This document shows, piece by piece, positions 7,989 to 51,341 of a DNA stretch of 64,000 bases; positions within the stretch are counted from its first letter, which is position 1, and every line of letters starts with the position of its first letter. This stretch comes from Eledone cirrhosa (Eukaryota): assembly GCA_964016885.1 (NCBI GenBank), contig OZ024746.1, forward strand, positions 44,888,001 to 44,952,000. Reading direction: 5' to 3'. A model generated the notes under the pieces. That model worked only from the letters and a program-made list of their open reading frames with translations, was not told where the DNA came from and ran no database searches. The translations under genes were made by a program, and so were the position numbers.

Positions 7989-8349
7989 GAAAGTCAGGGT
8001 AGAGAGGGAAGTGATCTCTTCCCAGCATTTTGTTGAAAGATGGGTGAGAGAAGCAAGTATGGCCCGAGTGAATGGGCCTACTCTGAGTATGTGTCTGTAA
8101 ATTAAAGGTGGAAAACTGGGAGAGGGCACTTGCCCTGGTGGTCAGGGTCACTGTGGCCTTTTAATGGGCTTTCTCCACAAATGTCCCTCGGAAGTTACCC
8201 CCCTATTGGGGAATTTTTCATTGTTATTTTTTTTATTACATCCTCTGTTTTTTTTTACACGCAGAAATGACAATTTGTACCGTCCTGTATTGTCCTGTAC
8301 TCTCCTTAATGTCTACTTTATGTAAACCCTTGTGGTTAATAAAGAAAGA
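7989..8349 (+). mobile_element. Tx1-clade LINE, 3'-terminal fragment
   Basis: Matches the last ~110 nt of ORF2 plus the 3'UTR of the full copies (e.g. 34761-35112). Ends AATAAAGAAAGA-(ATT)n. Confidence 0.92.
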
Positions 8350-8369
8350 ATTATTATTATTATTATTAT

Positions 8370-10282: not shown

Positions 10283-10517
10283 TTATTATTATTATTATTA
10301 TTGAATGCCATGGTTGACGGAGGCTCGGCTCTGTAAGGTATAGTAATTTTTAACCGTTAAAACAATTGTAAATTGTTTAAAACTTGAACCAAATTGTTGA
10401 TAAAGACACCCTCCTCCTCGTGAGAGGGGTCTTTCTGTCCGTTATTTGGCCTTCGGGGTTAAATAACCAGTTATTGGGGTTTTGTACCCAAAATTTCATT
10501 TTAAACAAAAAAACAAC

Positions 10518-12614
10518 ATGGCTACGAAAAAGAAATTTCATACGTCACTCCCACTCATTCCGTCTTCTTCTTCCTCAATCATCACTACAGCAGAGAGAAG
10601 ATTGTCTCTCTCCCTCCCTTCTTTAAATGTGTCTCTCTCCCTCCCTTCTCTTTCGCAAGCGACGAAAGAAAAGAAAAGTCTCGTGCAAAGCGTGCAAGGT
10701 TTCTCCACGACGACGACGACAGCGACGAAACAGGTGTGCGGGAAATACGAAAACCCAGTTCATTCGTCTGACGTCAGGAATAATAGCAGTAGCAGCCGTA
10801 ATAACAACAGCAACAGTGACAATGAAAACAACAGTAGCAGCCGCAACAGCATCACCAGCAGCATAAACAACAACAGCATTAGCAGCAGCAACACCAACAA
10901 CAACCACAGCAACAGCGGCGGAGGCAGTAGTCGTAGCACCTGCAGCAACAACAAAAGTACCAGCAGCTCTGACGACAACAACAACAGCAGAGAAAAACCA
11001 ATCTCATTTGCAGGTATTGCGAAAAACTTGGAAACAATCCTCATAACAAATGAGGAATTAGAGGAAGCGAAGAAGATGGTGACAAAGAACGGACACCGAG
11101 CAATCTGCAAGGCAGCGGAAAAATTTTTCGAAACCCAAGAGCAATGTACGGTCACGTACCGTACAGTAAGTACAAAATCCCGTAGGGTGGAAAGAGCCAC
11201 AGAGGCCCAAATACAAAAAGCCTTGGGGTCTGTGTGGCAGCGGAAAACGCACATCACCCGAGGCAAAAAATATGCCACCGTAGACGTACTTTTTGCCACA
11301 CCCCAGGAGGCAAAGGCCCAATCAGTAGTGACCCTAAGGAGCGAGGAAATGGTGTTGGTGCCCTCCTACTGTGGGCAAAAAATTGTGAGGGTCAAACTGA
11401 CCCACGTCCCCCCCGGAATGACCCCTTCTTGGCTGGCCGCGTCTGTCCTCGTCGGAATCGAGGACAAAACAACTGTACTGCAAGTACAGAAAAAAGTAAG
11501 AGAAGATTGGGTCGGCTCCTCCATTGAGATGCTAATCCAAACCAACCAGGAGTGCATCGAAGCTATCCCGGATGTGATAGACTTCGATAACGGCACTCAA
11601 CTGCCCATAAGTGTTGAGGGCAAACGCCCGAAATGCTTTCGCTGTGGATCGAAGACTCACCTCAGGGCCTTCTGCAACGAGAAGACCCTGAGAAAGGAGA
11701 AAACCCCCCTCCTTCCGAATCCGGCTCCACGGCTACCAGCAACAGGACAAGCGGCAACCAGGAACGATAGGCCCGTGGCACCCATACCCACTCCACGGAA
11801 ATCAAAAACAGCAGCAGCAGTGGAAATACTAACAACAACAACAGCAATACCAAATGCAGCTGCAACAGAGACTCCAGTGCAAACATCACCAACAACAACA
11901 AGTGAAAGAGTGGAGTTGGTACCCCTCCCCGACCTCACAGAATCAGACATGGAGTGTGAGGTGGGAGAGAGATGGCAAAAGGTCGTAAGAAGGCACAAAC
12001 GCAGAAGCAGCGCATCGTCGCCTTTGAAAAGGGAGGAAAGAAATGAGAAAAGGGTAAAGTCTACTGCAAAGAGACCCACAGCAGCAACACCACCAACACC
12101 ATCACCACCCACACCGGCACCACCATCAACACCGGCGACAACCCCACCGCCAACAACACCTTCAACACCACCACCACAAGCACCAACATCGCAAACACAA
12201 CAACAAAACACACACACCCAGCAACAACGACAAGAAAATAGCAGAACCACACCCCACCCCCAGAAAAACAAATGCACGGCAATAAACACACACAACAAGA
12301 AACTAATGACTTACATAATTGAACACACAGACATTTCACAACAGGACTACATAATACCAGCACCAATCAAAACGCCAACTAACATAAGACTGCTAAAAAT
12401 AGCACAGAAACAATACACAAACATTAAAACGAAATTCCCCAACGCAGTTGGTGATTTCAGGGACCTAGGAGGAACCATCAATCGAAGAGTATATTCAGAC
12501 ATTCTCTTAGAAGAGCCGACGACCAGCCGAAGGGACGATTCAACGGTCCCTTCACCAGACGATCAAGTGAAAAGGGATGTAAAAACCATCCCTCCTCTAC
12601 CAAAAGTACGGTAA
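10518..12614 (+). CDS. Tx1 ORF1p type A (698 aa; CX2CX4HX4C zinc knuckle, low-complexity N/S- and T/P-rich segments)
   Basis: ATG at 10518 matches the copy 2 start. Contains CFRCGSKTHLRAFC. Confidence 0.88.
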   Translation: MATKKKFHTSLPLIPSSSSSIITTAERRLSLSLPSLNVSLSLPSLSQATKEKKSLVQSVQGFSTTTTTATKQVCGKYENPVHSSDVRNNSSSSRNNNSNSDNENNSSSRNSITSSINNNSISSSNTNNNHSNSGGGSSRSTCSNNKSTSSSDDNNNSREKPISFAGIAKNLETILITNEELEEAKKMVTKNGHRAICKAAEKFFETQEQCTVTYRTVSTKSRRVERATEAQIQKALGSVWQRKTHITRGKKYATVDVLFATPQEAKAQSVVTLRSEEMVLVPSYCGQKIVRVKLTHVPPGMTPSWLAASVLVGIEDKTTVLQVQKKVREDWVGSSIEMLIQTNQECIEAIPDVIDFDNGTQLPISVEGKRPKCFRCGSKTHLRAFCNEKTLRKEKTPLLPNPAPRLPATGQAATRNDRPVAPIPTPRKSKTAAAVEILTTTTAIPNAAATETPVQTSPTTTSERVELVPLPDLTESDMECEVGERWQKVVRRHKRRSSASSPLKREERNEKRVKSTAKRPTAATPPTPSPPTPAPPSTPATTPPPTTPSTPPPQAPTSQTQQQNTHTQQQRQENSRTTPHPQKNKCTAINTHNKKLMTYIIEHTDISQQDYIIPAPIKTPTNIRLLKIAQKQYTNIKTKFPNAVGDFRDLGGTINRRVYSDILLEEPTTSRRDDSTVPSPDDQVKRDVKTIPPLPKVR

Positions 12615-12649
12615 GTGGTCTTTCCCATCTTTTCCACTCTATTTTAAAC

Positions 12650-15600
12650 ATGACCTCACTCAGAATAGGCAGCATAAATGCGCGTGGCTTGGGGTCGTCA
12701 TGGAAGCAGGGTCACCTGCTCAACGACCTCAGGTCACTAAACATAGATGTAGTGGCCATCAGCGAGACCAGAATCTCCGAAGCACGGGCCTTCGCACCGA
12801 TCTTCGGCGGCTACGATGTGTACGCATCTCCCAGCCGTCCTGGATCGGGTGGAGGAGTTGCTGTGCTTTTTCGGAGAGGTTTGGATCTCGCCATACGGGT
12901 CATCTTCCTGGACCCAGAGGGTAAGCTGGTGGTGCTGGACGTGACCAGCGGAGACGGGCAAGCTTTCAGGCTAGTGGCCGTCTATGCCCCGACAGGAGCA
13001 GGGGGGCCTGATTTCTTCCGGCGTCTGGAGACCTTTCTTGGAACGTCCCGCTCTTTAGTGTTAGTGGGCGACTGGAACGGGATCTTAGATGCACGCTGGG
13101 ACTGTGTGGGATTAGCGGATAGGGGTGGAGGGTGCAAGAGCCTCACCAACCTGCTCAGGCGTTTTGAACTGTCTGACAGGTACCGATTGGATTTCCCGAA
13201 TGTGCCAATGTGGACTTGGACAAACCGCATAGGGTCATCCAGATCATATCTAGATAGAGTATTTTGTAGGGAAATAGATAGGTCTAGCATAGGCTGTCCA
13301 CAATTCAAGATAGTCAGCTACACGGACCACAAATTCGTGACCTGTGTGCTTGACTTAGATAGGCTTCATAGACGAGGACCCGGCTACTGGAAGCTAAACG
13401 CGTCCTTACCAGCGCGCAAGGCCTACAGAGACCGGATTAGCGAACTAGTTAAGCGGGCGTTGACGGGGGCCATCGTCAACAACAAGTGGTGGTTTGCTCT
13501 GAAAAGAGCGATTAGAATAGAATCGATTAGGTTTAGTAAGGCTTTAGCAATAGAGAAAAATAGAGCAGAGGGAGAACTAGTTAGAAAATTAGACGAGGCG
13601 CTTAGCAAAGGCATTGCGACCGACGTGCTTGCGACGAAATTGGCCCTTGACCAATTCTTCAATGCAAAGCACGAAGGCTGCGTTGTCAGAGCTAGGGTGC
13701 GTGCTCTCAGACACGAGGGGACGAAAGCCGTTCAATGGGCCCGAGTGGCGGAGGCGCGTCGTGGCAACAAAGCCACGATCCGGTCTTTGGTGGACCACGA
13801 CGGGCGCATGCTACTCGATCCCGGGCAAATGTGTGAAGCTTTTCAGCGACACTTCGCTCAGCTGTTCGGGGGCAGCGGGGGGCCGGGTAGAGGGATGGAC
13901 TTTAGTGTCTACCTCGCGGGCTGCCGCGGCTCTCGGCCACTGAGGCGAGGTGTTGCGAAAAGCCGATAACAGCCGCTGAAGTACGGGAGGCAATGACTGG
14001 CTGCACAAGGGGTAAATCGCCTGGTTTGGATGGTCTGCCCTATGAACTTTACGTACAGATGCCAGACTTGTTCGGAGGCCTCTTGGCGGACGTCTACTGC
14101 AACTGGCAACAGAACGGGAGAATTCCCAGTTCTGTGAGCCGAGGAGCGGTGGCACTGCTGAGAAAGGATCCGAACAAGGGGGATAACATAGACAATTTCC
14201 GGCCCATAACTCTGCTAAACACAGAGTTTAAGATTTTGGCCAAGGTGCTAGCAAAGAGGTTGGCGCTTGTCGTTGGTGGTCTGGTGGGAGCGGCGCAGAC
14301 ATGCGCCATTCCCGACAGATCCATCCACGACAACCTCCACCTCATGCGATACATCGTAGAGAGGGTAGCTAGGGAACCTGGCACGGGTGGGTCCTTGATC
14401 AATTTAGATCAGTCGAAAGCTTTCGATAGGGTCGACCATCGTTACCTAGCGGCAGTCCTGAGGGCGGCTGGCTTTGGGCCCGTCTTCAGAGGCTGGATCG
14501 CTGCCATGCACAGCGACATCTGCTCTGTGGTGAGAGTGAACGGTCACCTGTCGGAACCGTTCAACATAATGCGCTCGGTCCGCCAAGGATGTCCCCTCTC
14601 GTCCCTCTTGTACGTATTGACGCTCGAGCCATTACTGCACAAACTGGAGACGTTGAGGGAAGTCCCGCGCGAACTAGGATGCGGAAGATCCGTGTCAGCA
14701 TATGCGGACGATGTCACCGTAGTGGTGTCGAACGCCAAACACATCGAGGTGATCGGCACTACACTAAGAGAATACGAAGCGGTGACAGGAGCAATGATCA
14801 ACCAGGAAAAGTCAGTGGGCCTGCAGCTCGGCACCTGGAGAGGCAGGTCCATGCCGTCCAACAGCGTCGTCGGACGCTGGACGGACGGACCGGTTAAATT
14901 GCTAGGGGTCTGGTTCGGTCCGGACCTCCAGACGGACAAAAACTGGGACGAGGTGACGAGCAGGGTGGCTTCTCTCACCCAGAAATGGGCGGAGAGGAAG
15001 CTATCCCTGAAAGGTCGAGCGGAGGTGGCTAACGCGTACATCGCGTCTGTCATCTGCTACCGCCTAACCGTCGTACCTTGTCCTAAGCCTCGCCTGACTG
15101 CGCTGGAGCGTTTGCTCTTTCGCTTTTTGTGGAAGGGACGTGCTCCGATGGTCAGGCGGTCCATCTGTTGTCAACACCCGCTACGTGGAGGGCTGGGCAT
15201 GCCGTGGCTGATGATGCGCAGGCACGCGCTCAGGCTACGACATCTCCACCTCTTCCTCGACGGTGATCAGGTGTGGTCGCCGTTTGCTAGACGCGTTTTT
15301 CCCCAGCTCGTTTCCTTGACGGAGCTGCAGTCCTGGGTCAAGCGAAGATCGAGAGGGAGCGCCTGGAGACTGGAATGTCTTCAGGCGCTCACAGCCCTCG
15401 ACCAATCGGGCAATGTGATCGGTGGAAACTCCACCTCGGCGTTCTATAGAGGATTAGTGGAGGGGAAGAGCGACGACGTACTTGGGGAAACTCTAGGCGT
15501 CGACGAAAATCAACTAGCCAATCTCTTCGGAAGAACTTTCGGGCCAGGGCCTATGGACAACTTCCAGAAATCTCTGGCCTGGCAGTGCTAGCGAGGAGCC

Positions 15601-16068
15601 TTGCCAGTTCGGGATAAACTCTACAGGCATGGAGGTGCCGTCAGCCGGGCATGTCCGAGATGCGCGCAGGGCGACGAAACCGTCCTGCACGCACTCGTCC
15701 AGTGTCCGAAAATTGCTGACTTGTGGGTTTATGTCGAACACCTGCTGTCGCGTTTAGGACGGATCCAGCTATCATCTGAGTCTATCGTGAGGATTGCCCC
15801 GCCCTCCTCCTTTAGCCGGGAAGGGCAGGCAGTTTTTATCTGTCTGGTGGCCATGGCGAAAGAGATAGTATGGTGGACACGTTTGAAAGGGCTGAAGACG
15901 AGCACTTACCTCTTCGGTGATGCTCTGATTGACTTTTTCAAATTTCATTTGAAAAGGAAAATCAGAGTAGAGAAGGAAGTGCTCTCTTCCCAGCATTTTG
16001 TTGAAAGATGGGTGAGAGAAGCAAGAATGGCCCGAGTGAATGGGCCGACTCTGAGTATATATCTGTAA
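12650..16068 (+). pseudogene. Tx1 ORF2 (APE endonuclease + RT + C-terminal CCHC), frameshift near 13916 and TAG at 15589-15591
   Basis: SINARGL, ISETR, VGDWN, LDR, TDH (APE); KAFD, RQGCPLS, YADD (RT); CPRC..ETVLHALVQC. Lesions seen by comparison with copy 2. Confidence 0.92.
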
Positions 16069-16562
16069 ACTAAAGGTGGAAAACTGGGAGAGGGCACTTG
16101 CCTTGGTGGTCAGGGTCATTGTGGCTTTTTACTGGGCTTTCTCCACAAATGTCCCTCCGAAGTCTCCCCCCTATTGGGGAATTTTTCATTGTTATTTTTG
16201 TTACATCCTCTGTTTTTGTTTTGTACACGCAGAAATGCCCATTTGTACCGTCCTGCATTGTCCTGCACTGTCCTTAATGTCTACTTTATGTAAACCCTTG
16301 TGGTTAATAAAGAAATCATTATTATTATTAATATTATTATTATTATTGAATGCCATGGTTGACGGAGGCTCGGCTCTGTAAGGTATAGTAATTTTTAACC
16401 GTTAAAACAATTGTAAATTGTTTAAAACTTGAACCAAATTGTTGATAAAGACAACCTCCTCCTCGTGAGAGGTGTCTTTCTGTCCGTTATTTGGCCCTTC
16501 GGGGTTAAATAACCAGTTATTGGGGTTTTGTACCCAAAATTTCATTTTAAACAAAAAACAAC

Positions 16563-18659
16563 ATGGCTACGAAAAAGAAATTGTATACGTCACTCCCACT
16601 CATTCCGTCTTCTTCTTCCTCAATCATCACTACAGCAGAGAGAAGATTGTCTCTCTCCCTCCCTTCTTTAAATGTGTCTCTCTCCCTCCCTTCTCTTTCG
16701 CAAGTGACGAAAGAAAAGAAAAGTCTCGTGCAAAGCGTGCAAGGTTTCTCCACGACGACGACGACAGCGACGAAACAGGTGTGCGGGAAATACGAAAACC
16801 CAGTTCATTCGTCTGACGTCAGGAATAATAGCAGTAGCAGCCGTAATAACAACTGCAACAGTGACAATGAAAACAACAGTAGCAGCCGCAACAGCATCAC
16901 CAGCAGCATAAACAACAACAGCATTAGCAGCAGCAACACCAACAACAACCACAGCAACAGCGGCGGAGGCAGTAGTCGTAGTACCTGCAGCAACAACAAA
17001 AGTACCAGCAGCTCTGACGACAACAACAACAGCAGAGAAAAACCAATCTCATTTGCAGGTATTGCGAAAAACTTGGAAACAATCCTCATAACAAATGAGG
17101 AATTAGAGGAAGCGAAGAAGATGGTGACAAAGAACGGACACCGAGCAATCTGCAAGGCAGCGAAAAAATTTTTCGAAACCCAAGAGCACTGTACGGTCAC
17201 GTACCGTACAGTAAGTACAAAATCCCGTAGGGTGGAAAGAGCCACAGAGGCCCAAATACAAAAAGCCTTGGGGTCTGTGTGGCAGCGGAAAACGCACATC
17301 ACCCGAGGCAAAAAATATGCCACCGTAGACGTACTTTTTGCCACACCCCAGGAGGCAAAGGCCCAATCAGTAGTGACCCTAAGGAGCGAGGAAATGGTGT
17401 TGGTGCCCTCCTACTGTGGGCAAAAAATTGTGAGGGTCAAACTGACCCACGTCCCCCCCGGAATGACCCCTTCTTGGCTGGCCGCGTCTGTCCTCGTCGG
17501 AATCGAGGACAAAACAACTGTACTGCAAGTACAGAAAAAAGTAAGAGAAGATTGGGTCGGCTCCTCCATTGAGATGCTAATCCAAACCAACCAGGAGTGC
17601 ATCGAAGCTATCCCGGATGTGATAGACTTCGATAACGGCACTCAACTGCCCATAAGTGTTGAGGGCAAACGCCCGAAATGCTTTCGCTGTGGATCGAAGA
17701 CTCACCTCAGGGCCTTCTGCAACGAGAAGACCCTGAGAAAGGAGAAAACCCCCCTCCTTCCGAATCCGGCTCCACGGCTACCAGCAACAGGACAAGCGGC
17801 AACCAGGAACGATAGGCAAGTGGCACCCATACCCACTCCACGGAAATCAAAAACAGCAGCAGCAGTGGAAATACTAACAACAACAACAGCAATACCAAAT
17901 GCAGCTGCAACAGAGACTCCAGTGCAAACATCACCAACAACAACAAGTGAAAGAGTGGAGTTGGTACCCCTCCCCGACCTCACAGAATCAGACATGGAGT
18001 GTGAGGTGGGAGAGAGATGGCAAAAGGTCGTAAGAAGGCACAAACGCAGAAGCAGCGCATCGTCGCCTTTGAAAAGGGAGGAAAGAAATGAGAAAAGGGT
18101 AAAGTCTACTGCAAAGAGACCCACAGCAGCAACAACACCAACACCATCACCACCCACACTAGCACCACCATCACCACCGGCGACAACCCCACCGCCAACA
18201 ACACCTTCAACACCACCACCACAAGCACCAACATCGCAAACACAACAACAAAACACACACACCCAGCAACAACGACAAGAAAATAGTAGAACCACACCCC
18301 ACCCCCAGAAAAACAAATGCACGGCAATAAATACACACAACAAGAAACTAATGACTTACATAATTGAACACACAGACATTTCACAACAGGACTACATAAT
18401 ACCAGCACCAATCAAAACGCCAACTAACATAAGACTGCTAAAAATAGCACAGAAACAATACACAAATATTAAAACGAAATTCCCCAACGCAGTTGGTGAT
18501 TTCAGGGACCTAGGAGGAACCATCAATCGAAGAGTATACTCAGACATTCTCTTAGAAGAGCCGACGACCAGCCGAAGGGACGATTCAACGGTCCCTTCAC
18601 CAGACGATCAAGTGAAAAGGGATGTAAAAACCATCCCTCCTCTACCAAAAGTACGGTAA
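16563..18659 (+). CDS. Tx1 ORF1p type A (698 aa)
   Basis: Open ORF with CCHC knuckle. Confidence 0.9.
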   Translation: MATKKKLYTSLPLIPSSSSSIITTAERRLSLSLPSLNVSLSLPSLSQVTKEKKSLVQSVQGFSTTTTTATKQVCGKYENPVHSSDVRNNSSSSRNNNCNSDNENNSSSRNSITSSINNNSISSSNTNNNHSNSGGGSSRSTCSNNKSTSSSDDNNNSREKPISFAGIAKNLETILITNEELEEAKKMVTKNGHRAICKAAKKFFETQEHCTVTYRTVSTKSRRVERATEAQIQKALGSVWQRKTHITRGKKYATVDVLFATPQEAKAQSVVTLRSEEMVLVPSYCGQKIVRVKLTHVPPGMTPSWLAASVLVGIEDKTTVLQVQKKVREDWVGSSIEMLIQTNQECIEAIPDVIDFDNGTQLPISVEGKRPKCFRCGSKTHLRAFCNEKTLRKEKTPLLPNPAPRLPATGQAATRNDRQVAPIPTPRKSKTAAAVEILTTTTAIPNAAATETPVQTSPTTTSERVELVPLPDLTESDMECEVGERWQKVVRRHKRRSSASSPLKREERNEKRVKSTAKRPTAATTPTPSPPTLAPPSPPATTPPPTTPSTPPPQAPTSQTQQQNTHTQQQRQENSRTTPHPQKNKCTAINTHNKKLMTYIIEHTDISQQDYIIPAPIKTPTNIRLLKIAQKQYTNIKTKFPNAVGDFRDLGGTINRRVYSDILLEEPTTSRRDDSTVPSPDDQVKRDVKTIPPLPKVR

Positions 18660-18694
18660 GTGGTCTTTCCCATCTTTTCCACTCTATTTTAAAC

Positions 18695-21600
18695 ATGACC
18701 TCACTCAGAATAGGCAGCATAAATGCGCGTGGCTTGGGGTCGTCATGGAAGCAGGGTCACCTGCTCAACGACCTCAGGTCACTAAACATAGATGTAGTGG
18801 CCATCAGCGAGACCAGAATCTCCGAAGCACGGGCCTTCGCACCGATCTTCGGCGGCTACGATGTGTACGCATCTCCCAGCCGTCCTGGATCGGGTGGAGG
18901 AGTTGCTGTACTTTTTCGGAGAGATTTGGATCTCGCCATACGGGCCATCTTCCTGGACCCAGAGGGTAAGCTGGTGGTGCTGGACGTGACCAGCGGAGAC
19001 GGGCAAGCTTTCAGGCTAGTGGCCGTCTATGCCCCGACAGGAGCAGGGCGGCCTGATTTCTTCCGGCGTCTGGAGACCTTTCTTGGAACGTCCCGCTCTT
19101 TAGTGTTAGTGGGCGACTGGAACGGGATCTTAGATGCACGCTGGGACTGTGTGGGATTAGCGGATAGGGGTGGAGGGTGCAAGAGCCTCACCAACCTGCT
19201 CAGGCGTTTTGAACTGTCTGACAGGTACCGATTGGATTTCCCGAATGTGCCAATGTGGACTTGGACAAACCGCATAGGGTCATCCAGATCATATCTAGAT
19301 AGAGTATTTTGTAGGGAAATAGATAGGTCTAGCATAGGCTGTCCACAATTCAAGATAGTCAGCTACACGGACCACAAATTCGTGACCTGTGTGCTTGACT
19401 TAGATAGGCTTCATAGACGAGGACCCGGCTACTGGAAGCTAAACGCGTCCTTACCAGCGCGCAAGGCCTACAGAGACCGGATTAGCGAACTAGTTAAGCG
19501 GGCGTTGACGGGGGCCATCGTCAACAACAAGTGGTGGTTTGCTCTGAAAAGAGCGATTAGAATAGAATCGATTAGGTTTAGTAAGGCTTTAGCAATAGAG
19601 AAAAATAGAGCAGAGGGAGAACTAGTTAGAAAATTAGACGAGGCGCTTAGCAAAGGCATTGCGACCGACGTGCTTGCGGCGAAATTGGCCCTTGACCAAT
19701 TCTTCAATGCAAAGCACGAAGGCTGCGTTGTCAGAGCTAGGGTGCGTGCTCTCAGACACGAGGGGACAAAAGCCGTTCAATGGGCCCGAGTGGCGGAGGC
19801 GCGTCGTGGCAACAAAGCCACGATCCGGTCTTTGGTGGACCACGACGGGCGCATGCTACTCGATCCCGGGCAAATGTGTGAAGCTTTTCAGCGACACTTC
19901 GCTCAGCTGTTCGGGGGCAGCGGGGGGCCGGGTAGAGGGATGGACTTTAGTGTCTACCTCGACGGACTGCCGCGGCTCTCGGCCACTGAGGCGAGGTGTT
20001 GCGAAAAGCCGATAACAGCCGCTGAAGTACGGGAGGCAATGACTGGCTGCACAAGGGGTAAATCGCCTGGTTTGGATGGTCTGCCCTATGAACTTTACGT
20101 ACAGATGCCAGACTTGTTCGGAGGCCTCTTGGCGGACGTCTACTGCAACTGGCAACAGAACGGGAGAATTCCCAGTTCTGTGAGCCGAGGTGCGGTGGCA
20201 CTGCTGAGAAAGGATCCGAACAAGGGGGATAACATAGACAATTTCCGGCCCATAACTCTGCTAAACACAGAGTTTAAGATTTTGGCCAAGGTGCTAGCAA
20301 AGAGGTTGGCGCTTGTCGTTGGTGGTCTGGTGGGAGAGGCGCAGACATGCGCCATACCCGACAGATCCATCCACGACAACCCCCACCTCATGCGATACAT
20401 CGTAGAGAGGGTGGCTAGGGAACCTGGCACGGGTGGGTCCTTGATCAATTTAGATCAGTCGAAAGCTTTCGATAGGGTCGACCATCGTTACCTAGCGGCA
20501 GTCCTGAGGGCGGCTGGCTTTGGGCCCGTCTTCAGAGGCTGGATCGCTGCCATGCACAGCGACATCTGCTCTGTGGTGAGAGTGAACGGTCACCTGTCGG
20601 AACCGTTCAACATCATGCGCTCGGTCCGCCAAGGATGTCCCCTCTCGTCCCTCTTGTACGTATTGACTCTCGAGCCATTACTGCACAAACTGGAGACGTT
20701 GAGGGGAGTCCCGCGCGAACTAGGATGCGGAAGATCCGTGTCAGCATATGCCGACGATGTCACCGTAGTGGTGTCGAACGCCAAACACATCGAGGCGATC
20801 GGCACTACACTAAGAGAATACGAAGCGGTGACAGGAGCAATGATCAACCAGGAAAAGTCAGTGGGCCTGCAGCTCGGCACCTGGAGAGGCAGGTCCATGC
20901 CGTCCAACAGCGTCGTCGGGCGCTGGACGGACGGACCGGTTAAATTACTATGGGTCTGGTTCGGTCCGGACCTCCAGACGGACAAAAACTGGGACGAGGT
21001 GACGAGCAGGGTGGCTTCTCTTACCCAGAAATGGGCGGAGAGGAAGCTATCCCTGAAAGGTCGAGCGGAGGTGGCTAACGCGTACATCGCGTCTGTCATC
21101 TGCTACCGCCTAACCGTCGTACCTTGTCCTAAGCCTCGCCTGACTGCGCTGGAGCGTTTGCTCTTTCGCTTTTTGTGGAAGGGACGTGCTCCGATGGTCA
21201 GGCGGTCCATCTGTTGTCAACACCCGCTACGTGGAGGGCTGGGCATGCCGTGGCTGATGATGCGCAGGCACGCGCTCAGGCTACGACATCTCCACCTCTT
21301 CCTCGACGGTGATCAGGTGTGGTCGCCGTTTGCTAGACGCGTTTTTCCCCAGCTCGTTTCCTTGACGGAGCTGCAGTCCTGGGTCAAGCGAAGACCGAGA
21401 GGGAGCGCCTGGAGACTGGAATGTCTTCAGGCGCTCACAGCCCTCGACCAATCGGGCAATGTGATCGGTGGAAACTCCACCTCGGCGTTCTATAGAGGAT
21501 TAGTGGAGGGGAAGAGCGACGACGTACTTGGGGAAACTCTAGGCGTCGACGAAAATCAACTAGCCAATCTCTTCGGAAGAACTTTCGGGCCAGGGCCTAT

Positions 21601-22114
21601 GGACAACTTCCAGAAATCTCTGGCCTGGCAGTGCTACCGAGGAGCCTTGCCAGTTCGGGATAAACTCTACAGGCATGGAGGTGCCGTCAGCCGGGCATGT
21701 CCGAGATGCGCGCAGGGCGACGAAACCGTCCTGCACGCACTCGTCCAGTGTCCGAAAATTGCTGACTTGTGGGTTTATGTCGAACACCTGCTGTCGCGTT
21801 TGGGACGGATCCAGCTATCATCTGAGTCTATCGTGAGGATTGCCCCGCCCTCCTCCTTTAGCCGGGAAGGGCAGGCAGTTTTTATCTGTCTGGTGGCCAT
21901 GGCGAAAGAGATAGTATGGTGGACACGTTTGAAAGGGCTGAAGACGAGCACTTACCTCTTCGGTGATGCTCTGATTGACTTTTTCAAATTTCATTTGAAA
22001 AGGAAAATCAGAGTAGAGAAGGAAGTGCTCTCTTCCCAGCATTTTGTTGAAAGATGGGTGAGAGAAGCAAGAATGGCCCGAGTGAATGGGCCGACTCTGA
22101 GTATATATCTGTAA
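18695..22114 (+). CDS. Tx1 ORF2p, APE-RT-zinc finger (1139 aa)
   Basis: Uninterrupted ORF with the APE and RT motifs, including YADD. Confidence 0.95.
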   Translation: MTSLRIGSINARGLGSSWKQGHLLNDLRSLNIDVVAISETRISEARAFAPIFGGYDVYASPSRPGSGGGVAVLFRRDLDLAIRAIFLDPEGKLVVLDVTSGDGQAFRLVAVYAPTGAGRPDFFRRLETFLGTSRSLVLVGDWNGILDARWDCVGLADRGGGCKSLTNLLRRFELSDRYRLDFPNVPMWTWTNRIGSSRSYLDRVFCREIDRSSIGCPQFKIVSYTDHKFVTCVLDLDRLHRRGPGYWKLNASLPARKAYRDRISELVKRALTGAIVNNKWWFALKRAIRIESIRFSKALAIEKNRAEGELVRKLDEALSKGIATDVLAAKLALDQFFNAKHEGCVVRARVRALRHEGTKAVQWARVAEARRGNKATIRSLVDHDGRMLLDPGQMCEAFQRHFAQLFGGSGGPGRGMDFSVYLDGLPRLSATEARCCEKPITAAEVREAMTGCTRGKSPGLDGLPYELYVQMPDLFGGLLADVYCNWQQNGRIPSSVSRGAVALLRKDPNKGDNIDNFRPITLLNTEFKILAKVLAKRLALVVGGLVGEAQTCAIPDRSIHDNPHLMRYIVERVAREPGTGGSLINLDQSKAFDRVDHRYLAAVLRAAGFGPVFRGWIAAMHSDICSVVRVNGHLSEPFNIMRSVRQGCPLSSLLYVLTLEPLLHKLETLRGVPRELGCGRSVSAYADDVTVVVSNAKHIEAIGTTLREYEAVTGAMINQEKSVGLQLGTWRGRSMPSNSVVGRWTDGPVKLLWVWFGPDLQTDKNWDEVTSRVASLTQKWAERKLSLKGRAEVANAYIASVICYRLTVVPCPKPRLTALERLLFRFLWKGRAPMVRRSICCQHPLRGGLGMPWLMMRRHALRLRHLHLFLDGDQVWSPFARRVFPQLVSLTELQSWVKRRPRGSAWRLECLQALTALDQSGNVIGGNSTSAFYRGLVEGKSDDVLGETLGVDENQLANLFGRTFGPGPMDNFQKSLAWQCYRGALPVRDKLYRHGGAVSRACPRCAQGDETVLHALVQCPKIADLWVYVEHLLSRLGRIQLSSESIVRIAPPSSFSREGQAVFICLVAMAKEIVWWTRLKGLKTSTYLFGDALIDFFKFHLKRKIRVEKEVLSSQHFVERWVREARMARVNGPTLSIYL

Positions 22115-22376
22115 ACTAAAGGTGGAAAACTGGGAGAGGGCACTTGCCTTGGTGGTCAGGGTCATTGTGGCTTTTTACTGGGCTTTCTCCACAAATGTCC
22201 CTCCGAAGTCTCCCCCCTATTGGGGAATTTTTCATTGTTATTTTCATTGTTATTTTTGTTACATCCTCTGTTTTTGTTTTTTTACACGCAGAAATGCCCA
22301 TTTGTACCGTCCTGCATTGTCCTGCACTGTCCTTAATGTCTACTTTATGTAAACCCTTCTGGTTAATAAAGAAATC

Positions 22377-22432
<56 letters not shown>

Positions 22433-22433
<1 letters not shown>

Positions 22434-23420: not shown

Positions 23421-23661
23421 AATTATTATTATTATTATTATTATTATTGGTTATCATTACAAAACGGTGGTAACTACGGCGGAGTAAGCTGGTTGAATTA
23501 TTATGAGTTATCGAGTGTTCTAATAATATATGTTTACATCGGTATGTAGTCAAAGAGCCCCTCTGTCAAAGGAAGTGGTTTTTTTAACTGTATCTCGCGC
23601 GCTTGAGGGCAACATTTGCTTTTATTTACAATCATAACCCCAAAATAAAAAAAATAAAAAC

Positions 23662-25501
23662 ATAGCGGACAAAAAAATTGTCCACAGGGAGGAACAGCGA
23701 GTTGTTCAGAGGGTGGAACAGCCATTTCCACCCAATCACAAGGCAAAGTAAAAATCAAGAGAAACAGCAGCAGCAGCGACAGCGACAGTGATAATGATAT
23801 CAGCAGCAGCTGTCCCTGGAACAGTAGTTGAAGTAGTGAAAATTATAACGAAAAATTTCCTGCGTTACAGAAATCAAACACCACTACCACCCCAATAACA
23901 ACAATAACAACAGCAACAACCACAAATAACCCAAAGAACAACAACTATAACAGCAGCAACACAGAGGAAAAAGAAACAAACAAAAACACCGGCGACGGCA
24001 ACAAAGACAAAACTAGTGACGTGCCAACACAACTCAAAACAAACACGTCTTTCGCGAAAGCGATCAACAAGTTTGAGCAAATAAACATCACTAACGAAGA
24101 GATAAAACAAGCAAAGCTCTTGGTAAAAAAAAACCGGACACAGAGTAAGACTCAGCTGAGATAATAAGAAACAAACTTTTGTGTTCGGTCAGTTATCGCA
24201 CGATCGGATCAAAATCCAGGCGAGTTGAACGGGCAACGAATTCACAGATCCAACGAACTATGGGTGTCGTCTGGGCATAGAAAACATATATAGCCCAGGG
24301 ATCGAGATATGGCACTGTGGAGGTGCTCTTAGCTACACCAGAGAAAACCAGAGCACACTCCATTGCACCACTCCTCAGCGACGAAATCACAATGATGCCC
24401 ACATATTGCGGCCAGAGAGTCGTGAGGGATCGAGTAGGCCAGGTTCCACCCTCAGTGGAGATGGCGTGGTTGACGTCAGCGGTCCTCGCTGACGTTGAAG
24501 ATTCAACAACCATACTCAACGTCATACAAATAAGACACTAAAATTGGACAGAGTCGGGGATGGAGCTAATCATCCAAGCAAACCACGAAAGCGTTGAGGC
24601 CATCCCCGATGTAATAGACCTGGACGACGGTAGCCATCTACCCGTGACTGTCGAAGGTAGGCACCCAAGGTGTCATGGATGCGGTGACAAGACGCACCTT
24701 AAGGCATTCTGCCCCAAAATTACCAAAAGAGGCACGCGCCCACCCCTTCTCCCCACGCCGTGCCCCGCAACTGGAGCAGACAAACAAACAAAGAACACAG
24801 TGGCAGAAGAGAAATCACCATCCCCAACAACAAAAACACCATCTCTTCTACCACCCACAAAACCAATGGAAAGCATACCCCTTCCTGATATAGCCAAATC
24901 GGACAACGAGTGCGATGAGGCTGAAGAGTAGAGAATTATTCCAACAAAAAAAAGGAAGAACTCCCTACCCTGATCCCCCCCCCAACAAAAAAGAGGAAGA
25001 AAGAACCTTAAAAAAAAGTAAATGAAAATTACCCCACCTCCTCCACCACCATCAACAGACACACACCCACAATCACATACACCATCTCCACCACCACCAA
25101 CACCACCACCACCCTTACCATCTACACCATCGTCAACTCCAACCACACGACAGCAAACACAGAAAACACAACACCCAAACAGCAGACACAATACACAGCC
25201 ATAGACACAGACAACACAAAGCTTTTAAATTACATTCAACACCACACCAACATCACAGAAACAAGCTACGTACAAACCACCAAAATCCCCCCCCCACACA
25301 CACACACACACAAACACATAAAAATAATAGAAATTACACAAAAAAAATTACATAACATTAAAAAAAATGTTCCCCACATCAATTGGAGACCACCGAGGGA
25401 ACATCACCAGAAGAATATTCACGGATATTCTCGTGGAGAAACCCACCAATGGAAGGAGGGATGGATCACCCACCCCCTTCTAAAAGAAGAGCCACAGGTA
25501 A
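23662..25501 (+). pseudogene. Tx1 ORF1 type B, disrupted
   Basis: Fragments ..PTYCGQRVVR.., ..VEGRHPRCHGCGDKTHLKAFC and ..RRIFTDILVE.. are homologous to type A. Start coordinate approximate. Confidence 0.8.
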
Positions 25502-25551
25502 TTTGTTTGTACCTCTCCCCTCTCAGTTGTTTAAATCCTATCTTAGCCAAC

Positions 25552-28500
25552 ATGGCTACTCTCAGAATAGGTAGCATAAATGTACGTAGCCTGGGGTCAT
25601 CTTGGAAGCAGAGAAACCTGCTGAACGATCTCAGGTCGCTAAACATAGATGTGACGGCCATCAGCGAGACCAGAATCTCCGAGGCACGGGCCTTCGCACC
25701 GATCTTCGGCGGCTACATTGTGTACGCATCTCCCAGCCATCCTGGATCGGGGGGATGAGTTGCTGTGCTTTTCCGGAGAGGTTTGGATCTCGCCATACGG
25801 GCCAACTTCCTGGTGCTAGACGTGACCAGCGGAGACGGGCAAGCTTTCAGGCTAGTGGCCGTCTATGACCCGACAGGAGCAGGGCGGCCTGATTTCTTCC
25901 GGCGTCTGGAGACCTTTCTTGAAACGTCCCGCTCATTAATGTTAGTGGGCGACTGGAACGGGATCTTAGATGCACGCTGGGACTGTGTGGGATAAGCGGA
26001 TAGGGGAGGAGGGTGCAAGAGTCTCACCAACCTGCTCAGGCCTGTTGAACTGTCTGACCGGTACCGATTAGATTTCCCGAATGTGCCAATGTGGACTTGG
26101 ACAAACCGCATAGGGTCATCCAGATCATATCTAGATAGAGTATGTTGTAGGGAAATAGATAGGTCTAGCATAGGCTGTCCACAATTCAAGATAGTAAGCT
26201 ACACGGACCAGAAATTCGTGATCTGTGTGGTTGACTTAGATAGGCTTCATAGACAAGGACCCGGCTACTGGAAGCTAAACCCTTCCTTACCAGCGCGCAA
26301 GGCCTACAGAGACCGGATTAGCGAAATAGTTAAGCTGGCGTTGACGGGGGCCATCGTCAACAACAAGTGGTGGTTTGCTCTGAAAAGAGCGATTAGAATA
26401 GAGTCCATTAGGTTTAGTAAGGCTTTAGCTATAGAGAAAAATAGAGCAGAGGGAGAACTAGTTAGAAAATTAGACGAGGCGCTTAGTAAAAGCATCGCTA
26501 CCGTCGTACTTGCGGCGAAATCGGCTCTTGACCAATTCTTCAATGCAAAGCACGAAGGCTGCGTTGTCAGACCTAGGGTGCGTGCTCTCAGACACGAGGG
26601 TACGAAAGCCGTTCAATGGGCCCGAGTGGCGGAGGCGCATCGTGGCAACAAAGCTACGATCCGGTTTTTTGATTGACCACGACGGGCGCATGCTACTCGA
26701 CCCCGGGAAAATGTGTGAAGCTTTGCAGCGACACTTTGCTCAGCTGTTCGGGGCCAGCAGCGTGCCGGATCGAGGAATGGACTTTAGTGCCTACCTGGAC
26801 GGACTGCCGCGGCTCTGCCGAAGGACTGTTGCGAAAAGCCGATAACAGCAGCTGAAGTACGGGAGGCAATGACTTGCTGCACAAGTGGTAAATCGCCTTG
26901 TTTGGATGGTATGTCCTATGAAATTTACGTACAGATGCCAGACTTGTTCGGAGGCCTCTTGGCGGACGTCTACTGCAACTGGCAACAGAACGGGAGAATT
27001 CCCAGCTCTGTGAGCCGAGGAGCGGTGGCGCTGCTGAGAAAGGATCCGAACAAGAGGGATAACATAGATAATTTCAGGCCCATAACTCTGCTAAACACAG
27101 AGTTCAAGATTTTGGCCAAGGTGCTAGCAAAGAGGTTGGCGCTTGTCGTTGGTGGTCTGGTGGGAGAGGTGCAGACATGCGTCATTCCCGACAGATCCAT
27201 CCACGACAACCTCCGCCTCATGCGATACATCGTGGAGAGGGTAGCTAGGGAACCTGGCACCGGTGGATCTTTGGTCAATTTAGATCAGTCGAAAGCTTTC
27301 TATAGGGTCAACAATCGTTACCTAGCGGCAGTCCTAAGGGCGGCTGGCTTTGGGCCCGTCTTTAGAGGCTCGATCGCTGCCATTCACAGCGACATCTGCT
27401 CTGTGGTGAGAGTGAGCGGTCACCTTTCGGAACCGTTCAACATCATGCGCTCGGTCCGCAAAGGATGTCCCCTCTCGTCTCTCTTGTACGTATTGACTCT
27501 CGAGCCATTACTGCACAAACTGGAGACGCTGAGGGGCGTCCCACGCGAAGTAGGATGCGGAAGATCCGGGTCAGCAAATGCGGATGATGTCACCGTAGTG
27601 CTGTCGAACGCCAAACACATCGAGAATACGAAGCGGTGACAGGAGCAATGATCAACCAGGAAAAGTCAGTGGGCTTGCAGCTCGGCACCTGGAGAGGCAG
27701 GTCCATGCCGTCCAACAGCGTCGTCGGACGCTGGGCTGACCGGTTAAATTGCTAGGGGACTGGTTCGGTCCGGACCTCCAGACGGACAAAAACTGGGACG
27801 AGGTGACGAGCAGGGTGGCTTCTCTCACCCAGAAATGGGCGGAGAGGAAGCTATCCCTGAAAGTTCAGCGGAGGTAGCTAACGCGTACATCGCGTCTGTC
27901 ATCTGCTACGCCTGACCGTCGTACATTGTCCTAAGCCCCGCCTGACTGCGCTGGAGCGTTTGCTCTTTCGCTTTTTGTGGAAGGGACGCGCTCCGATGGT
28001 CAGGCGGTCCATCTGCTGTCAACACCCGCTACGTGGAGAGTTGGGCAGTTCGTGACTGATGATGCGCAGACACGCGCTCAGGCTACGACATCTCCACCTC
28101 TTCCTCGAGGGTGATCAGGTCTGGTCGCCGTTTGCTAGACACGTATTTCCCTAGCTCGTTTCCTTGACGGAGCTGCAGTCCTGGGTAAATCGAAGACCGT
28201 GAGGGAGCGCCTGGAGACAGGAATGTCTTCAGGCTCTCACAGCCCTCGACCAATCGGGCAATGTGATCGGTGGAAACTCCACCTCGGCGTTCTATAGAGG
28301 ATTAGTGGAGGGGAAGAGCGACGACGTACGTGGGGAAACTCTAGGCGTCGACGAAAATCAACTAGCCAATCTCTTCGGAAGAACTTTCGAGCCGGGACCT
28401 ATGGACAACTTCCAGAAATCTCTGGCCTGGCAGTGCTACCGAGGAGCCTTGCCAGTTCGGGATAAACTCTACAGGCATGGAGGTGCCGTCAGCCGGGCAT

Positions 28501-28916
28501 GTCTGAGATGCGCGCAGGGCGACGAAACCGTCCTGCACGCACTCGTCCAGTGTCCGAAAATTTCTGACTTGTGGGTTTATGTCGAAGACCTGCTGTCGCG
28601 TGTAGGACGGATCCGGCTATCATCTGAGTCCATCGTCAGGATTGTCCCGCCCTCTTCCTTTAGCCGGGAAGGGCAGGCAGATTTTATATGTCTGGTGGCC
28701 ATGGCGAAAGAGATAGTATTGTAGACACGTTTGAAAGGGCTGAAGACGAGCACTTACCTCTTCGGTGATGCCCTGATTAACTTTTTCAAATTTCATTTGA
28801 AAAGGAAAATCAGGGTAGAGAGGGAAGAGCTCTCTTCCCAGCATTTTGTTGAAAGATGGGCGAGAAAAGCAAGAATGGCCCGAGTGAATGGGCCTACTCT
28901 GAGGACGTATCTGTAA
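25552..28916 (+). pseudogene. Tx1 ORF2, disrupted
   Basis: Runs from MATLRIGSIN.. to ..GPTLRTYL* in multiple frames. YADD reads NADD. Confidence 0.9.
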
Positions 28917-29164
28917 ATTAAAGGTGGAAAACTGGGAGAGGGCACTTGCCTTGGTGGTCAGTGTCACTGTGGCCTTTTACTGGGCTTTCTCCACAAATGT
29001 CCCTCCGAAGTCTCCCCCCTATTGGGGAATTTTTCATTGTTATTTTTTTGTTACATCCTCTGTTTTTGTTTTTTACACGCAGAAATGCCCATTTGTACCG
29101 TCATGTATTGCCCTGCACTCTCCTTAATGTCTACTTTATGTAAACCCTTGTGGTTAATAAAGAA

Positions 29165-29206
<42 letters not shown>

Positions 29207-29413
29207 GGCCACCTACGTAGTAAATCGTTTCATCGTGAGCTCCGCAAAGGTTTGTTATTTCCGTTTGTTAAAAATTGTCATTTATGGAAAATGTTATTGT
29301 TAACTGTTTATAAGCGCACATACATTGTTTTCCGAAAAGGACACCCAAAAAGATTGGGGCCTTGTGCCCAAAATTTAAACTTTTATTATTATCAAAAAAT
29401 TTCTTTGAAAAAA

Positions 29414-31408
29414 ATGGCTAATTCACCTCTGCAACAAGCAGCTGAAAGCCTTCCTCACAAATTAACACCTCACACCGACACCACCATTGTAAATGTTACT
29501 ACGTTTGCCAACACAAAAAAAATATAAGCAGTAGCAATATTTTAAATTTGTCTCAGGCAGACATTCATTTCCCGCCATTACCAATGACTGCAGGTCTTAA
29601 AGCCTCCACCACCACCACCACCGTGACAACCACCACCCCCACCACCACCGCGACAACAGAAACAAAAGAAGAAAAAAATAAATTAACTCGTGATGTCGAA
29701 ATGAAATCAAGCAAAATGGACTCTTCCCCACCAAAGACGACTGACGTCACCACCACCACAACTGAAACTAAAATTAATATTAACACAAATAACGATAGCA
29801 ACAACAACAACAACAATGACATTATAAAACCGACCCTCAGTTTCGCCATAGTAGCAAAACAGTTTGAAGCATTCACGGTAACTCAGGAGGATTTAGAAAA
29901 TGCCAAACAAATGGTAAAGAAAGATGGGTACAGGGTCAGCCTCACCCCCCCCCTATTAAAATGGAGCATCGGCGCCTATGCACCGTGTCGTATAGAACAA
30001 TAAATGTAAAATCGCGCCGAGTGGAACGGGCATCCGAGTCCCAAATCCAAAAAGCTTTGGGACATGTGTGGGCAAGAAAAACCCACATCAGACGTGGGCA
30101 AAAGTATGGAACCGTGGATGTGTTCTTTGAAACACCAGAGGAGGCTAGAGAACACTCCATGGCCCCATTGAAAAGTGACGACTTCACACTCGTCCCAAGC
30201 TATTGTGGCCAGAGACTCGTAAAGATCAGGGTGACCCACGTTCCACCGGCCATCGAAATTCCCTGGCTAATAGCGGCTGTCCTCGCCGGCATCGAAGCCA
30301 ACACGAAAATAATAGCAATAGCAAAAGAAAAGCATGAGAAGTGGTCCGGATCTGGGATGGAGCTCCTGATCCAAGCGGACCAAAAAAGCATTGAGGAGAT
30401 CCCAGAGGTAATAGACCTCACTGACGGCAGCTACCTCACGGTAATTGTCGAGGGCAGAAGACCTAGGTGTGTCGTTTGTGGTGAAGGAACCCACCTAAGG
30501 GCTTTCTGCCCTCAGGCTAAAAGGTTGAGGCCACCTCTCCTACCTACCCCAGTGACACAACCATCAACACCACCAGTAGCAGAGATGGCAGCAACAACTG
30601 TAGCAGCAACAACAGAAGCAACTATAACAGCAACAACCCCAGCAACAGTAGCAAAACCAACACCACTACCACCACCAGCAAAACCAACACCACCACCACC
30701 CAACGCTTCAGAACTAGCACCAGTGCCTACACCATCCACCACACCACAACCAAAACTAACGGCTGTGGAGGATTTTCCACTCCCCGGCCTATCACAACTG
30801 GAGACAGATTGTGACGACGAGGAGTGGGAAACGATATCCGGAAAAAAAGAAGAAACCAAAAAAGAAAAAATTCTCTTCCTTCCCCCTCCAAAAACAAAAT
30901 ACAGAGGGAAACAAATAAATTAAGAAACAAAAAAGTTAGGACAGATATGCCACCATCCACACCAGCATCACCAACCCCATCAACCCAAACACCAACACCA
31001 TCACCATCATTAACCCCAGCACCACCATCACCTACACCACAAAAGTCACCAAAATGCGAAACAGAAACAAACCCACAACAATGGCAAACAAAACAAAACA
31101 ACCAAAACGATACACACTACACAGCATTAAATTTGAACAACAAGCAATTATTACACTACATCCAACACAACACCAGCTTCACAGAAAAAGACTACACAAC
31201 AACCCCAAAATTCACACCACCTCCACACATACAAATCACTCGCATCACACAGAAAACGTACATGACACTAAAACAAAAATTCCCCAAAGACATCGGAGAC
31301 TTCGGACAAGCACTCTCCAGGAGGATTTATAAGGACATCCTTCCTGAGGAGGCCACAAGCAGTGAAAAGGATGGAAAAACCGTCCTTCCCCTACGAGAAG
31401 TAAGGTAA
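29414..31408 (+). pseudogene. Tx1 ORF1 type C, frameshifted mostly at homopolymer runs
   Basis: MANSPLQ.. start, VEGRRPRCVVCGEGTHLRAFC knuckle, ends ..PLREVR*. Confidence 0.82.
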
Positions 31409-31442
31409 GTGGTCTTTCCCATCTTTTCCACTCCTTTTCAAC

Positions 31443-34400: not shown

Positions 34401-34869
34401 TTTGCCAGTTCGGGATAAACTCTACAGGCATGGAGGTGCCGTCAGCCGGGCTTGTCCGAGATGCGAGCAGGGCGACGAAACCGTCCTGCACGCACTCGTC
34501 CAGTGTCCGAGCATTGCTGACTTGTGGGTTTATGTCGAACACCTGCTGTCACGTGTAGGACCTATCCAGCTATCAGCTGAGTCCATCGTGAGGATTGCCC
34601 CGCCCCCTTCCTTTAGCCGGGAAGGGCAGGCAGTTTTTATCTGTCTGGTGGCCATGGCGAAAGAGATAGTATGGTGGACACGTTTGAAAGGGCTGAAGAC
34701 GAGCACTTACCTCTTCGGTGATGCCCTGATTAACTTTTTCAAATTTCATTTGAAAAGGAAAATCAGGGTAGAGAGGGAAGTGCTCTCTTCCCAGCATTTT
34801 GTTGAAAGATGGGTGAGAGAAGCAAGTATGGCTCGAATGAATGGGCCTTCTCTGAGTATGTGTCTGTAA
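31443..34869 (+). pseudogene. Tx1 ORF2, frameshifts near 32250, 32850 and 34352
   Basis: Pieces 31443-32255, 32252-32998, 32823-34418 and 34354-34869 are collinear with copy 2 ORF2. Confidence 0.92.
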
Positions 34870-35115
34870 ATTAAAGGTGGAAAACTGGGAGAGGGCACTT
34901 GCCCTGGTGGTCAGGGCCACTGTGGTCTTTTAATGGGCTTTCTCCACAAATGTCCCTTGGAAGTCTCCCCCCTATTGGTGAATTTTTCTTTGTTATTTTA
35001 TTTCAACCTCTGTTTTTTTACACGCAGAAATGCCCATTTGTACCGTCCTGTATTGTCCTGTACTGTCCTTAATGTCTACTTTATGTGAACCCTTGTGGTT
35101 AATAAAGAAAACATT

Positions 35116-35798: not shown

Positions 35799-35807
35799 TA
35801 TTATTAT

Positions 35808-35879
<72 letters not shown>

Positions 35880-35887
35880 CAGCAGTA
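35799..35887. repeat. (ATT)n then (AGT)n tract, right boundary of the array
   Basis: Directly visible. Confidence 0.95.
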
Positions 35888-42297: not shown

Positions 42298-42423
<126 letters not shown>

Positions 42424-42494
42424 AAGAAAAAGGGATGAAATCGAAAATGCAACTGAAGTCTTATTTTTTTAAAAGTATATATATTTATTTGATT

Positions 42495-42532
42495 CCTTTA
42501 CCGGTTTCGCAGTTCTTCTGCTTTTCAAAAGG
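42495..42532 (-). ncRNA. Minimal hammerhead-like motif (variant core TTGAAAA)
   Basis: Reverse complement of 47731-47768. Confidence 0.6.
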
Positions 42533-43044: not shown

Positions 43045-43083
<39 letters not shown>

Positions 43084-43333: not shown

Positions 43334-43374
<41 letters not shown>

Positions 43375-45420: not shown

Positions 45421-45425
45421 AATGA

Positions 45426-46886: not shown

Positions 46887-46925
<39 letters not shown>

Positions 46926-47175: not shown

Positions 47176-47216
<41 letters not shown>

Positions 47217-51337: not shown

Positions 51338-51341
51338 GGGG

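Follow-up and report, generated by a model that had tools for sequence, protein, structure and literature searches.

A 5' splice-donor motif overlapping the stop codon of the first open reading frame (ORF1) of a Tx1-like long interspersed nuclear element (LINE) was found to be conserved in all 12 lineages of this element collected from the genome of Eledone cirrhosa. The element was studied from a stretch of 64,000 nucleotides (nt) of assembly GCA_964016885.1 (contig OZ024746.1, positions 44,888,001 to 44,952,000 of the forward strand; hereafter the window), in which positions 7989-35112 hold four long copies (A1, A2, B and C) and one 5'-truncated copy of this two-ORF LINE. We regard the donor as conserved and real, a long-range RNA helix (clamp) over it as predicted, splicing as unproven and the acceptor at 16232 as lineage-specific. 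The reading set out below, in which ORF2 would be spliced out to leave an ORF1-only mRNA, throttled by the helix in a copia-like manner, has in our judgment, based on sequence and folding models, about an even chance of being right.

The splice donor at the ORF1 end

The genome searched was the 3.0 Gb assembly, from which the sister lineages were all collected; the lineage labels (A, B, C, D1-3, E, E2, F, G, H and I) are our own. The donor and the copies of the element in the window are as follows, a slash within a motif marking the cut.

12608..12616, + strand: 5' splice-donor motif ACG/GTAAGT overlapping the ORF1 stop, cut at 12610/12611; best of 297 GT sites
10301..16317, + strand: copy A1 (type A) of the Tx1-like LINE, flanked by ATT runs at 10283-10300 and 16318-16347; 99% identity to A2
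10518..12614, + strand: ORF1, 698 amino acids, with a CCHC knuckle and a predicted RNA-binding core
12650..16068, + strand: ORF2 region (APE endonuclease, reverse transcriptase, zinc-binding), broken in A1
16348..22378, + strand: copy A2, with donor at 18656, intact ORF2 and candidate acceptor at 22291
23449..29165, + strand: type B copy, with donor at 25498 and candidate acceptor at 29082; mutated spacer, failed the helix test
29205..35112, + strand: type C copy, with donor at 31405, candidate acceptor at 35027 and a CAG inside ORF1 ending at 31362
7989..8349, + strand: 5'-truncated copy, ORF2 end and 3' untranslated region (3'UTR) only, candidate acceptor at 8264

The initial annotation had read the donor motifs as CG/GTAAGT at 12611 and 18656, AG/GTAATT at 25498 and AG/GTAAGT at 31405, and all four are in place. 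Its treatment of the three ORF1 ends as divergent, separate cases had to be given up, as they are homologous: A and C align from 12566 and 31361 on at 95%, having the last 45 nt of ORF1 and everything downstream in common, and B aligns with both. With homologous ORF1 ends and five 3'UTRs that all represent one sequence, the window amounts to about one observation per site.

Across the 12 lineages, the donor motif is kept between unrelated flanks, at an ORF2 DNA identity to A2 of 70-96% overall (83% in E, 76-77% in D1-3, and 70-71% in F, G, H and I), so that the conservation asked for in related families was recovered. The letters are ACG/GTAAGT in A, AAG/GTAAGT in C, E, E2, D2, D3 and I, GAG/GTAAGT in D1, TAG/GTAAGT in F, GAG/GTGAGT in G, CAG/GTAGGT in H and CAG/GTAATT in B. 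A consensus-match score of our own places the donor between first and fourth among the 273-326 GT sites of every one of 14 copies. The annotated pattern of an Arg codon plus TAA in one phase holds for the ORF1 types of the window and breaks down across the clade, where phases 0 and 1 and TGA or TAG stops occur in sisters. The donor lies in phase 2 in A, B, C, F, G, H and I (F and G by homology), in phase 1 in E, D2 and D3, where ORF1 ends in G-K-stop, and in phase 0 in D1, where it stands nine codons upstream of the stop; the ORF1 stops around it are TAA, TAG or TGA. Given three phases with differing stops, the constraint is on the nucleotides and not on the Arg-stop.

It is very unlikely that these motifs are functionless and were left by chance from one ancestor. 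The window copies are indeed homologous at these sites and the AG at 16232 is lineage-specific; yet the donor motif outlasts full turnover of its flanks, in three phases and with three stop codons in 12 lineages. Judged from the sequences, donor conservation goes beyond chance, and a chance origin, unlikely for the donor, is possible for the 16232 AG alone.

Acceptor candidates and genomic joins

The candidate acceptor and its surroundings in copy A1 are the following.

16180..16232, + strand: T-rich tract plus CAG, candidate acceptor, A/B/C lineage only; pyrimidine fraction 0.75, AG-free over 69 nt
16233..16317, + strand: candidate terminal exon, with AATAAA at 16306-16311
16166..16179, + strand: small C-run/TATT/G-run hairpin, inside the intron of the initial annotation, conserved in all aligned 3'UTRs

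The 3'UTR sites were correctly described as TACACGCAG/AAATG, with the AG ending at 8264, 16232, 22291, 29082 and 35027, and AATAAA starts 74 nt after each AG. Joining 12610 to 16233 takes out 3622 nt as a GT...AG intron, as had been proposed; the copy cited for it has its ORF2 in pieces (ORFs 12650-13969 and 13993-15591), the intact ORF2 of 1139 amino acids being that of A2 at 18695-22114. The spliced exon does read NAHLYRPALSCTVLNVYFM followed by a stop in the phase-2 frame, a 19-amino-acid extension. In the window copies, a site of the 16232 type comes first or second by pyrimidine content among about 125 YAG sites, with an AG-free zone of 63-82 nt. The expectation that this acceptor would be conserved in related families was not borne out, as the 16232 AG and the extension are absent in E, D1-3, F, G, H and I, lineage E having ACGCAC at the homologous motif and most sisters TGTAAA at the position of the AG in an alignment of ten 3'UTRs. 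Nor is constraint on the extension specific, because a stop before the poly(A) signal is frequent in phase 0 also (63 of the 69 fetched copies, versus 57 in phase 2).

In the sisters, attention falls on the ORF2 stop itself, which is TAG in 10/10 copies and mostly followed by G (TAG/G, acceptor-like). This TAG is among the top 4 of 103-132 YAG sites in 7/9 copies, and in 7/9 sister copies the phase of the donor has an early stop no more than two codons further on, as against 2/18 for the other phases; the lineages are related, and one lineage I copy (L407) was left out of the rank and phase counts. The ancestral acceptor was likely the ORF2 stop. In A, B and C this stop is TAA, and an older 3' end (L404, L495) has both the TAG stop and the downstream AG, which fits a single event in which the 16232 site was gained and the old stop acceptor then lost. 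Because their ORF2 stop changed to TAA, A, B and C would need a replacement acceptor, and if splicing occurs, 16232 is somewhat more probably that acceptor than it is not. Most type B copies (L476-L495) carry an A/C-type 3' end, and one of the 20 fetched (L495) an older TAG-type end that pairs with the B spacer. The hairpin at 16166-16179, kept across lineages down to 70% identity, may be a recognition signal for the reverse transcriptase.

Genomic joins were sought with patterns that select for joins at the donor. Two were found, involving the following sites of copy A1.

12566..12568, + strand: type A chimera seam, E2-lineage ORF1 up to the donor position (12567), then type C sequence after the CAG (31362)
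15605..15608, + strand: cryptic CAG in ORF2, its equivalent forming the 3' side of the join at the donor in L468; weak, rank 60 of 123 YAG sites

Upstream of the type A seam, 300 nt are 86% identical to E2 and 54% to C, whereas the 150 nt downstream are 92% identical to C and 45% to E2. The CAG behind which the C sequence begins lies 43 nt upstream of the C donor, and one additional base in A just past the seam, in comparison to C, restores the frame of the C-type tail. Type A is an E2/C chimera, and the seam is likely a fossil GT-AG join. In the second case, L468 (G000:C7:35089897-35092910), an E-type ORF1 is cut at the donor and resumes after a CAG matching window positions 15605-15607; the 3' part comprises the last 150 codons of an A/B/C-type ORF2 (from codon ~987), the endonuclease and reverse transcriptase being gone. 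L468 is a candidate for a spliced, trans-mobilised retrocopy, and no second copy of its join was present among 40 matches scored. Each of the two joins falls exactly on the donor position of a sister lineage and immediately follows an AG, a dinucleotide that precedes 7% of ORF2 positions, so that the donor appears splice-competent. The joins suggest that cryptic acceptors can serve this donor in splicing, the RNAs involved probably being read-through transcripts of tandem arrays.

In the other searches, no join of this kind was present among the matches inspected. Those from acceptor-side patterns (34/57 and 47/109 inspected) were point variants, copies truncated at the 5' end and two internal ORF2 deletions; the latter (L082 and L236) end at the acceptor, and neither starts at a GT, so that the method is able to detect joins at the acceptor. 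The A/C donor-side patterns (7/7, 30/54, 46/160 and 35/40 inspected) gave point variants, small deletions and unrelated matches. A D2 join in L473 was rejected as a microhomology deletion, not GT-AG.

The genomic copies also bear on a short intron of 52-53 nt, from the donor to an AG 14 nt into ORF2, which would fuse ORF1 and ORF2. In its favour are a preserved frame in A, B and C and a pyrimidine-rich spacer. However, no match genome-wide had the A/C donor joined to this AG, and this is a strong test, because such a product would keep ORF2 and copy itself in cis. In phase 0 and 1 lineages the intron would also break the frame, and in H and F its length would be only about 39-42 nt. The missing A/C joins and the frame mismatch in sisters largely refute it, and we give it almost no weight.

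The predicted helix and the proposed switch

A feature absent from the initial annotation is a helix that is predicted to loop out ORF2 and to cover the donor, with the following arms in A1.

12610..12670, + strand: 5' arm, comprising the donor, a 35-nt pyrimidine spacer and the first ORF2 codons; seen in a duplex model (-40.7 kcal/mol) and in a cofold
16039..16103, + strand: 3' arm, comprising the last ORF2 codons, the TAA at 16066-16068 and the initial 35 nt of the 3'UTR

All helix results are energy-model predictions, uncorrected for kinship between lineages. In A1 and A2, the donor and spacer form a 26-bp predicted duplex with the 37 nt just after the ORF2 stop, which is the best of 735 windows and is equalled in strength by 0/300 dinucleotide shuffles. 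The helix of C, E, I and D2 is like that of A (0-5/300 shuffles as strong), with G (12/300) and D3 (18/300) weaker. With flanking context, a copy's own stop region is its best partner window in 16/18 copies, one D1 copy with a mutated donor being left out of this set. Pairing of the donor with the 3'UTR is predicted at a probability of about 1.0 for A, C and E; for H and I the value is 0.7-0.96, and for D, F and G it is 0.5-0.65. The helix runs on into both ends of ORF2, where the Watson-Crick fraction is 0.51 in the best register versus 0.20-0.35 in seven others, and the prediction sets the ORF2 ATG opposite the ORF2 stop.

This reach into both coding ends, with start opposite stop, would be expected if the helix itself were the conserved feature, serving translation (ORF2 start beside ORF2 stop, or damped ORF2 initiation) or template folding, the donor letters being a by-product of stop context and pairing. 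We find this rather improbable, given that the donor letters remain the same although their partners in the helix, like the remainder of the stem, vary by lineage, that the motif persists in phases where it is not the stop codon, that the B donor is by prediction mostly in a local hairpin instead, and that two joins lie exactly at the donor.

In the copia-like reading, U1 would bind the donor co-transcriptionally, while ORF2 is still being transcribed. The 3' arm would appear 3.4 kb later, and helix formation would then compete with spliceosome assembly. If the spliceosome prevails, ORF2 would be taken out and the product would be an ORF1-only mRNA, in which the stop of ORF1 would fall in the last exon, close to the poly(A) site; if the helix forms, it would mask the donor and preserve the bicistronic full-length template. 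The competition would thereby set the ratio of ORF1-only to genomic RNA. The idea of splicing as a switch, already put forward by the initial annotation, gains from the conserved donor, the two joins at a sister donor and the bracketing of ORF2 in sisters; the part resting on the 16232 acceptor does not carry over to the clade. Use of the exact intron 12611-16232, which needs both this model and the 16232 site, is doubtful.

Several observations weigh against the removal of ORF2 in this manner. For the stop acceptor, the phase-matched early stop fails in G and in one I copy, and the G that follows the TAG of sisters pairs in the helix too, so that structure may be the reason for its retention. 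The helix itself is marginal in D1 and H (37-46/300 shuffles as strong) and, in the window B copy, no better than shuffles (155/300). In the genome, the retroposed copy with a 12610-16233 junction that the initial annotation had hoped for was not recovered, the A/C donor joined to 16233 giving 0 matches versus 3,598 intact A/C donors. Joins of the type B donor to its acceptor likewise numbered 0 (37/41 matches inspected, the remaining 4 being unable to match), as did joins to the stop acceptor in D1 (23/23 matches), D2/D3 (7/7), E (36/36) and H (4/4). The search for the 16233 join is a weak test, because the product would be without ORF2, would need help in trans and would lose the hairpin at 16166-16179. 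Both fossil joins use cryptic AGs and not the proposed acceptors; lineage E has one cryptic join and none at the stop acceptor. As the two joins have a 2-nt AG microhomology in common, they could also stem from template switching.

Some of these points would be accounted for if U1 bound the donor without regular splicing, guarding the nascent RNA from premature cleavage or keeping it nuclear until the 3'UTR is made and then being displaced by the helix, which would free the full-length RNA, splicing being an occasional leak to cryptic AGs. The donor is conserved far better than any acceptor, copies with a programmed junction were not found and the two joins use weak cryptic AGs, the donor is nearly fully paired by prediction in A, C and E, and in the accessible portions of the work on the copia element EVD (PMC5580714) U1 represses premature termination. 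Left unexplained by such a role are the sister TAG/G stop, its pyrimidine rank and the phase-tracking early stops, and also why a strong AG arose in the single lineage whose TAG was lost. We consider a role of U1 without regular splicing the main alternative to the copia-like reading, and less probable than it.

Contigs of five sequencing runs were also aligned to A1. No 12610 join occurred among the joints listed (15/993 and 15/55), and contigs in three of the runs (X5, X6 and X7) bridge the donor unspliced; as no listed run is on record as RNA and these five, of unrecorded or guessed kind, may be DNA, they were counted neither way.

The fullest form of the copia-like reading combines four parts: that throughout this LINE clade the enzyme ORF is handled as an intron under regulation, that a 3.4-kb RNA clamp masks both splice sites and sets the ORF1:ORF2 ratio, that the acceptor of the youngest lineage moved away from the ORF2 stop to a new position, and that splicing across tandem arrays created a new active family by exon-style ORF1 swapping. 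Taken jointly, these are tentative and unlikely to hold all together.

The window, related elements and biological meaning

ORF2 exceeds the cut-offs for PF03372, PF00078 and PF13966, corresponding to an APE endonuclease, a reverse transcriptase and zf-RVT, a domain set common to the L1 clade. ORF1 has no Pfam match; CX2CX4HX4C can be read in its sequence, and its Atlas feature neighbours are CCHC and ZCCHC3/RRM-like proteins, which we take as a lead only. All four long window copies are flanked by (ATT)n runs, and lineage G and I copies terminate in ATCT-type repeats. A Tx1 label, taken here as provisional, agrees with this architecture and with insertion into microsatellites (PMC4494074). 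The type A/C family is young and large: the intact donor motif marks 3,598 genome places, and 150 scored matches to the ORF2 N-terminus are at 99-100% identity, many with full open frames. Relatives in other animals have 40-44% ORF2 identity, and a metagenome scan for DNA of these relatives found nothing. Lineage H (L409-L438, L496-L501) is a second young family with many intact 1152-amino-acid frames and a spacer of just 25 nt; in one copy (L413) a stop mutation leads to a 1781-amino-acid open frame spanning ORF1 and ORF2.

Another LINE, on the minus strand, is interleaved with the Tx1 copies as fragments at 6774-10311, 22430-23420, 35416-35943 and 61046-63115. It carries a reverse transcriptase and a restriction-like nuclease motif, and we take it to be R4/Dong or CRE-like; the Tx1 copies occupy ATT runs at the edges of its fragments. 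Further along, at 42420-47843 and 48094-54631, two big, near-perfect inverted duplications (arms of at most 1.5 kb, 94-100%) surround Penelope-like ORFs with reverse transcriptase and GIY-YIG, and are either a true inverted tandem or an assembly artefact.

Tx1-clade retrotransposons without long terminal repeats (LTRs; hence non-LTR) that target microsatellites have been described, including Kibi, Koshi and crocodilian Tx1 (accessible portions of PMC4494074), and 'L1-Tx1' families are reported from Octopus vulgaris (accessible portions of PMC13282606). With these, the window LINE shares the two ORFs, the ORF2 domain set and insertion in simple repeats, here (ATT)n. In the accessible portions of both papers (PMC4494074, PMC13282606), unlike in our analysis of the window LINE, a splice donor, an ORF2-spanning intron or a clamp is not mentioned, and the strings 'splic' and 'intron' occur 0 times in the accessible main text of the octopus paper (PMC13282606).

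The closest functional likeness is with the Arabidopsis Ty1/copia element EVD, for which the accessible sections of PMC5580714 describe a spliced shGAG, a donor conserved better than its acceptor and U1 in two roles. The features in common would be a U1-type donor near the end of the structural gene, an mRNA for the structural protein only and a second role of U1 against premature termination. EVD differs in that it has LTRs and in that its intron is short and linked to early termination; splicing is shown there (same sections of PMC5580714), whereas here it is proposed from sequence. The window LINE, for its part, is a bicistronic non-LTR element, its would-be intron is the whole 3.5 kb enzyme ORF, and a long-range helix is predicted over the donor. 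It is not an LTR element with a single gag-pol ORF, and would work like copia without being a member of it.

Among LINEs, splicing of human L1 yields SpIREs from 5'UTR or 5'UTR/ORF1 events, described as dead ends in the available parts of PMC5860796. These come from a LINE with usable splice sites and the spliced RNAs are sometimes retroposed (same source), which L468 and the type A seam resemble; the difference lies in a donor that is conserved clade-wide at the ORF1 end, one join of which appears to have founded an active family. HAL1 (half-L1) elements, according to the available parts of PMC5753468, are ORF1-only LINE derivatives that form genomic families. The ORF1-only idea is alike, while an ORF1-only family with the expected join was not found in our searches.

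The initial annotation's remark that this arrangement had not been described for Tx1 agrees with our literature search, which found none, subscription journals and Repbase reports being outside its reach. The splice logic itself is known, from copia gag splicing and from sporadic LINE splicing in human SpIREs.

What is known of how bicistronic LINEs make far more ORF1 than ORF2 protein comes mostly from mammalian L1 and a small number of insect elements. If true, the conserved donor and the clamp would give a LINE that has arrived at the retrovirus and copia solution, alternative splicing, with two testable switches, set in a young family of thousands of near-identical copies. In addition, the type A seam suggests that splicing may serve as a route for the exchange of ORF1 among LINE families.

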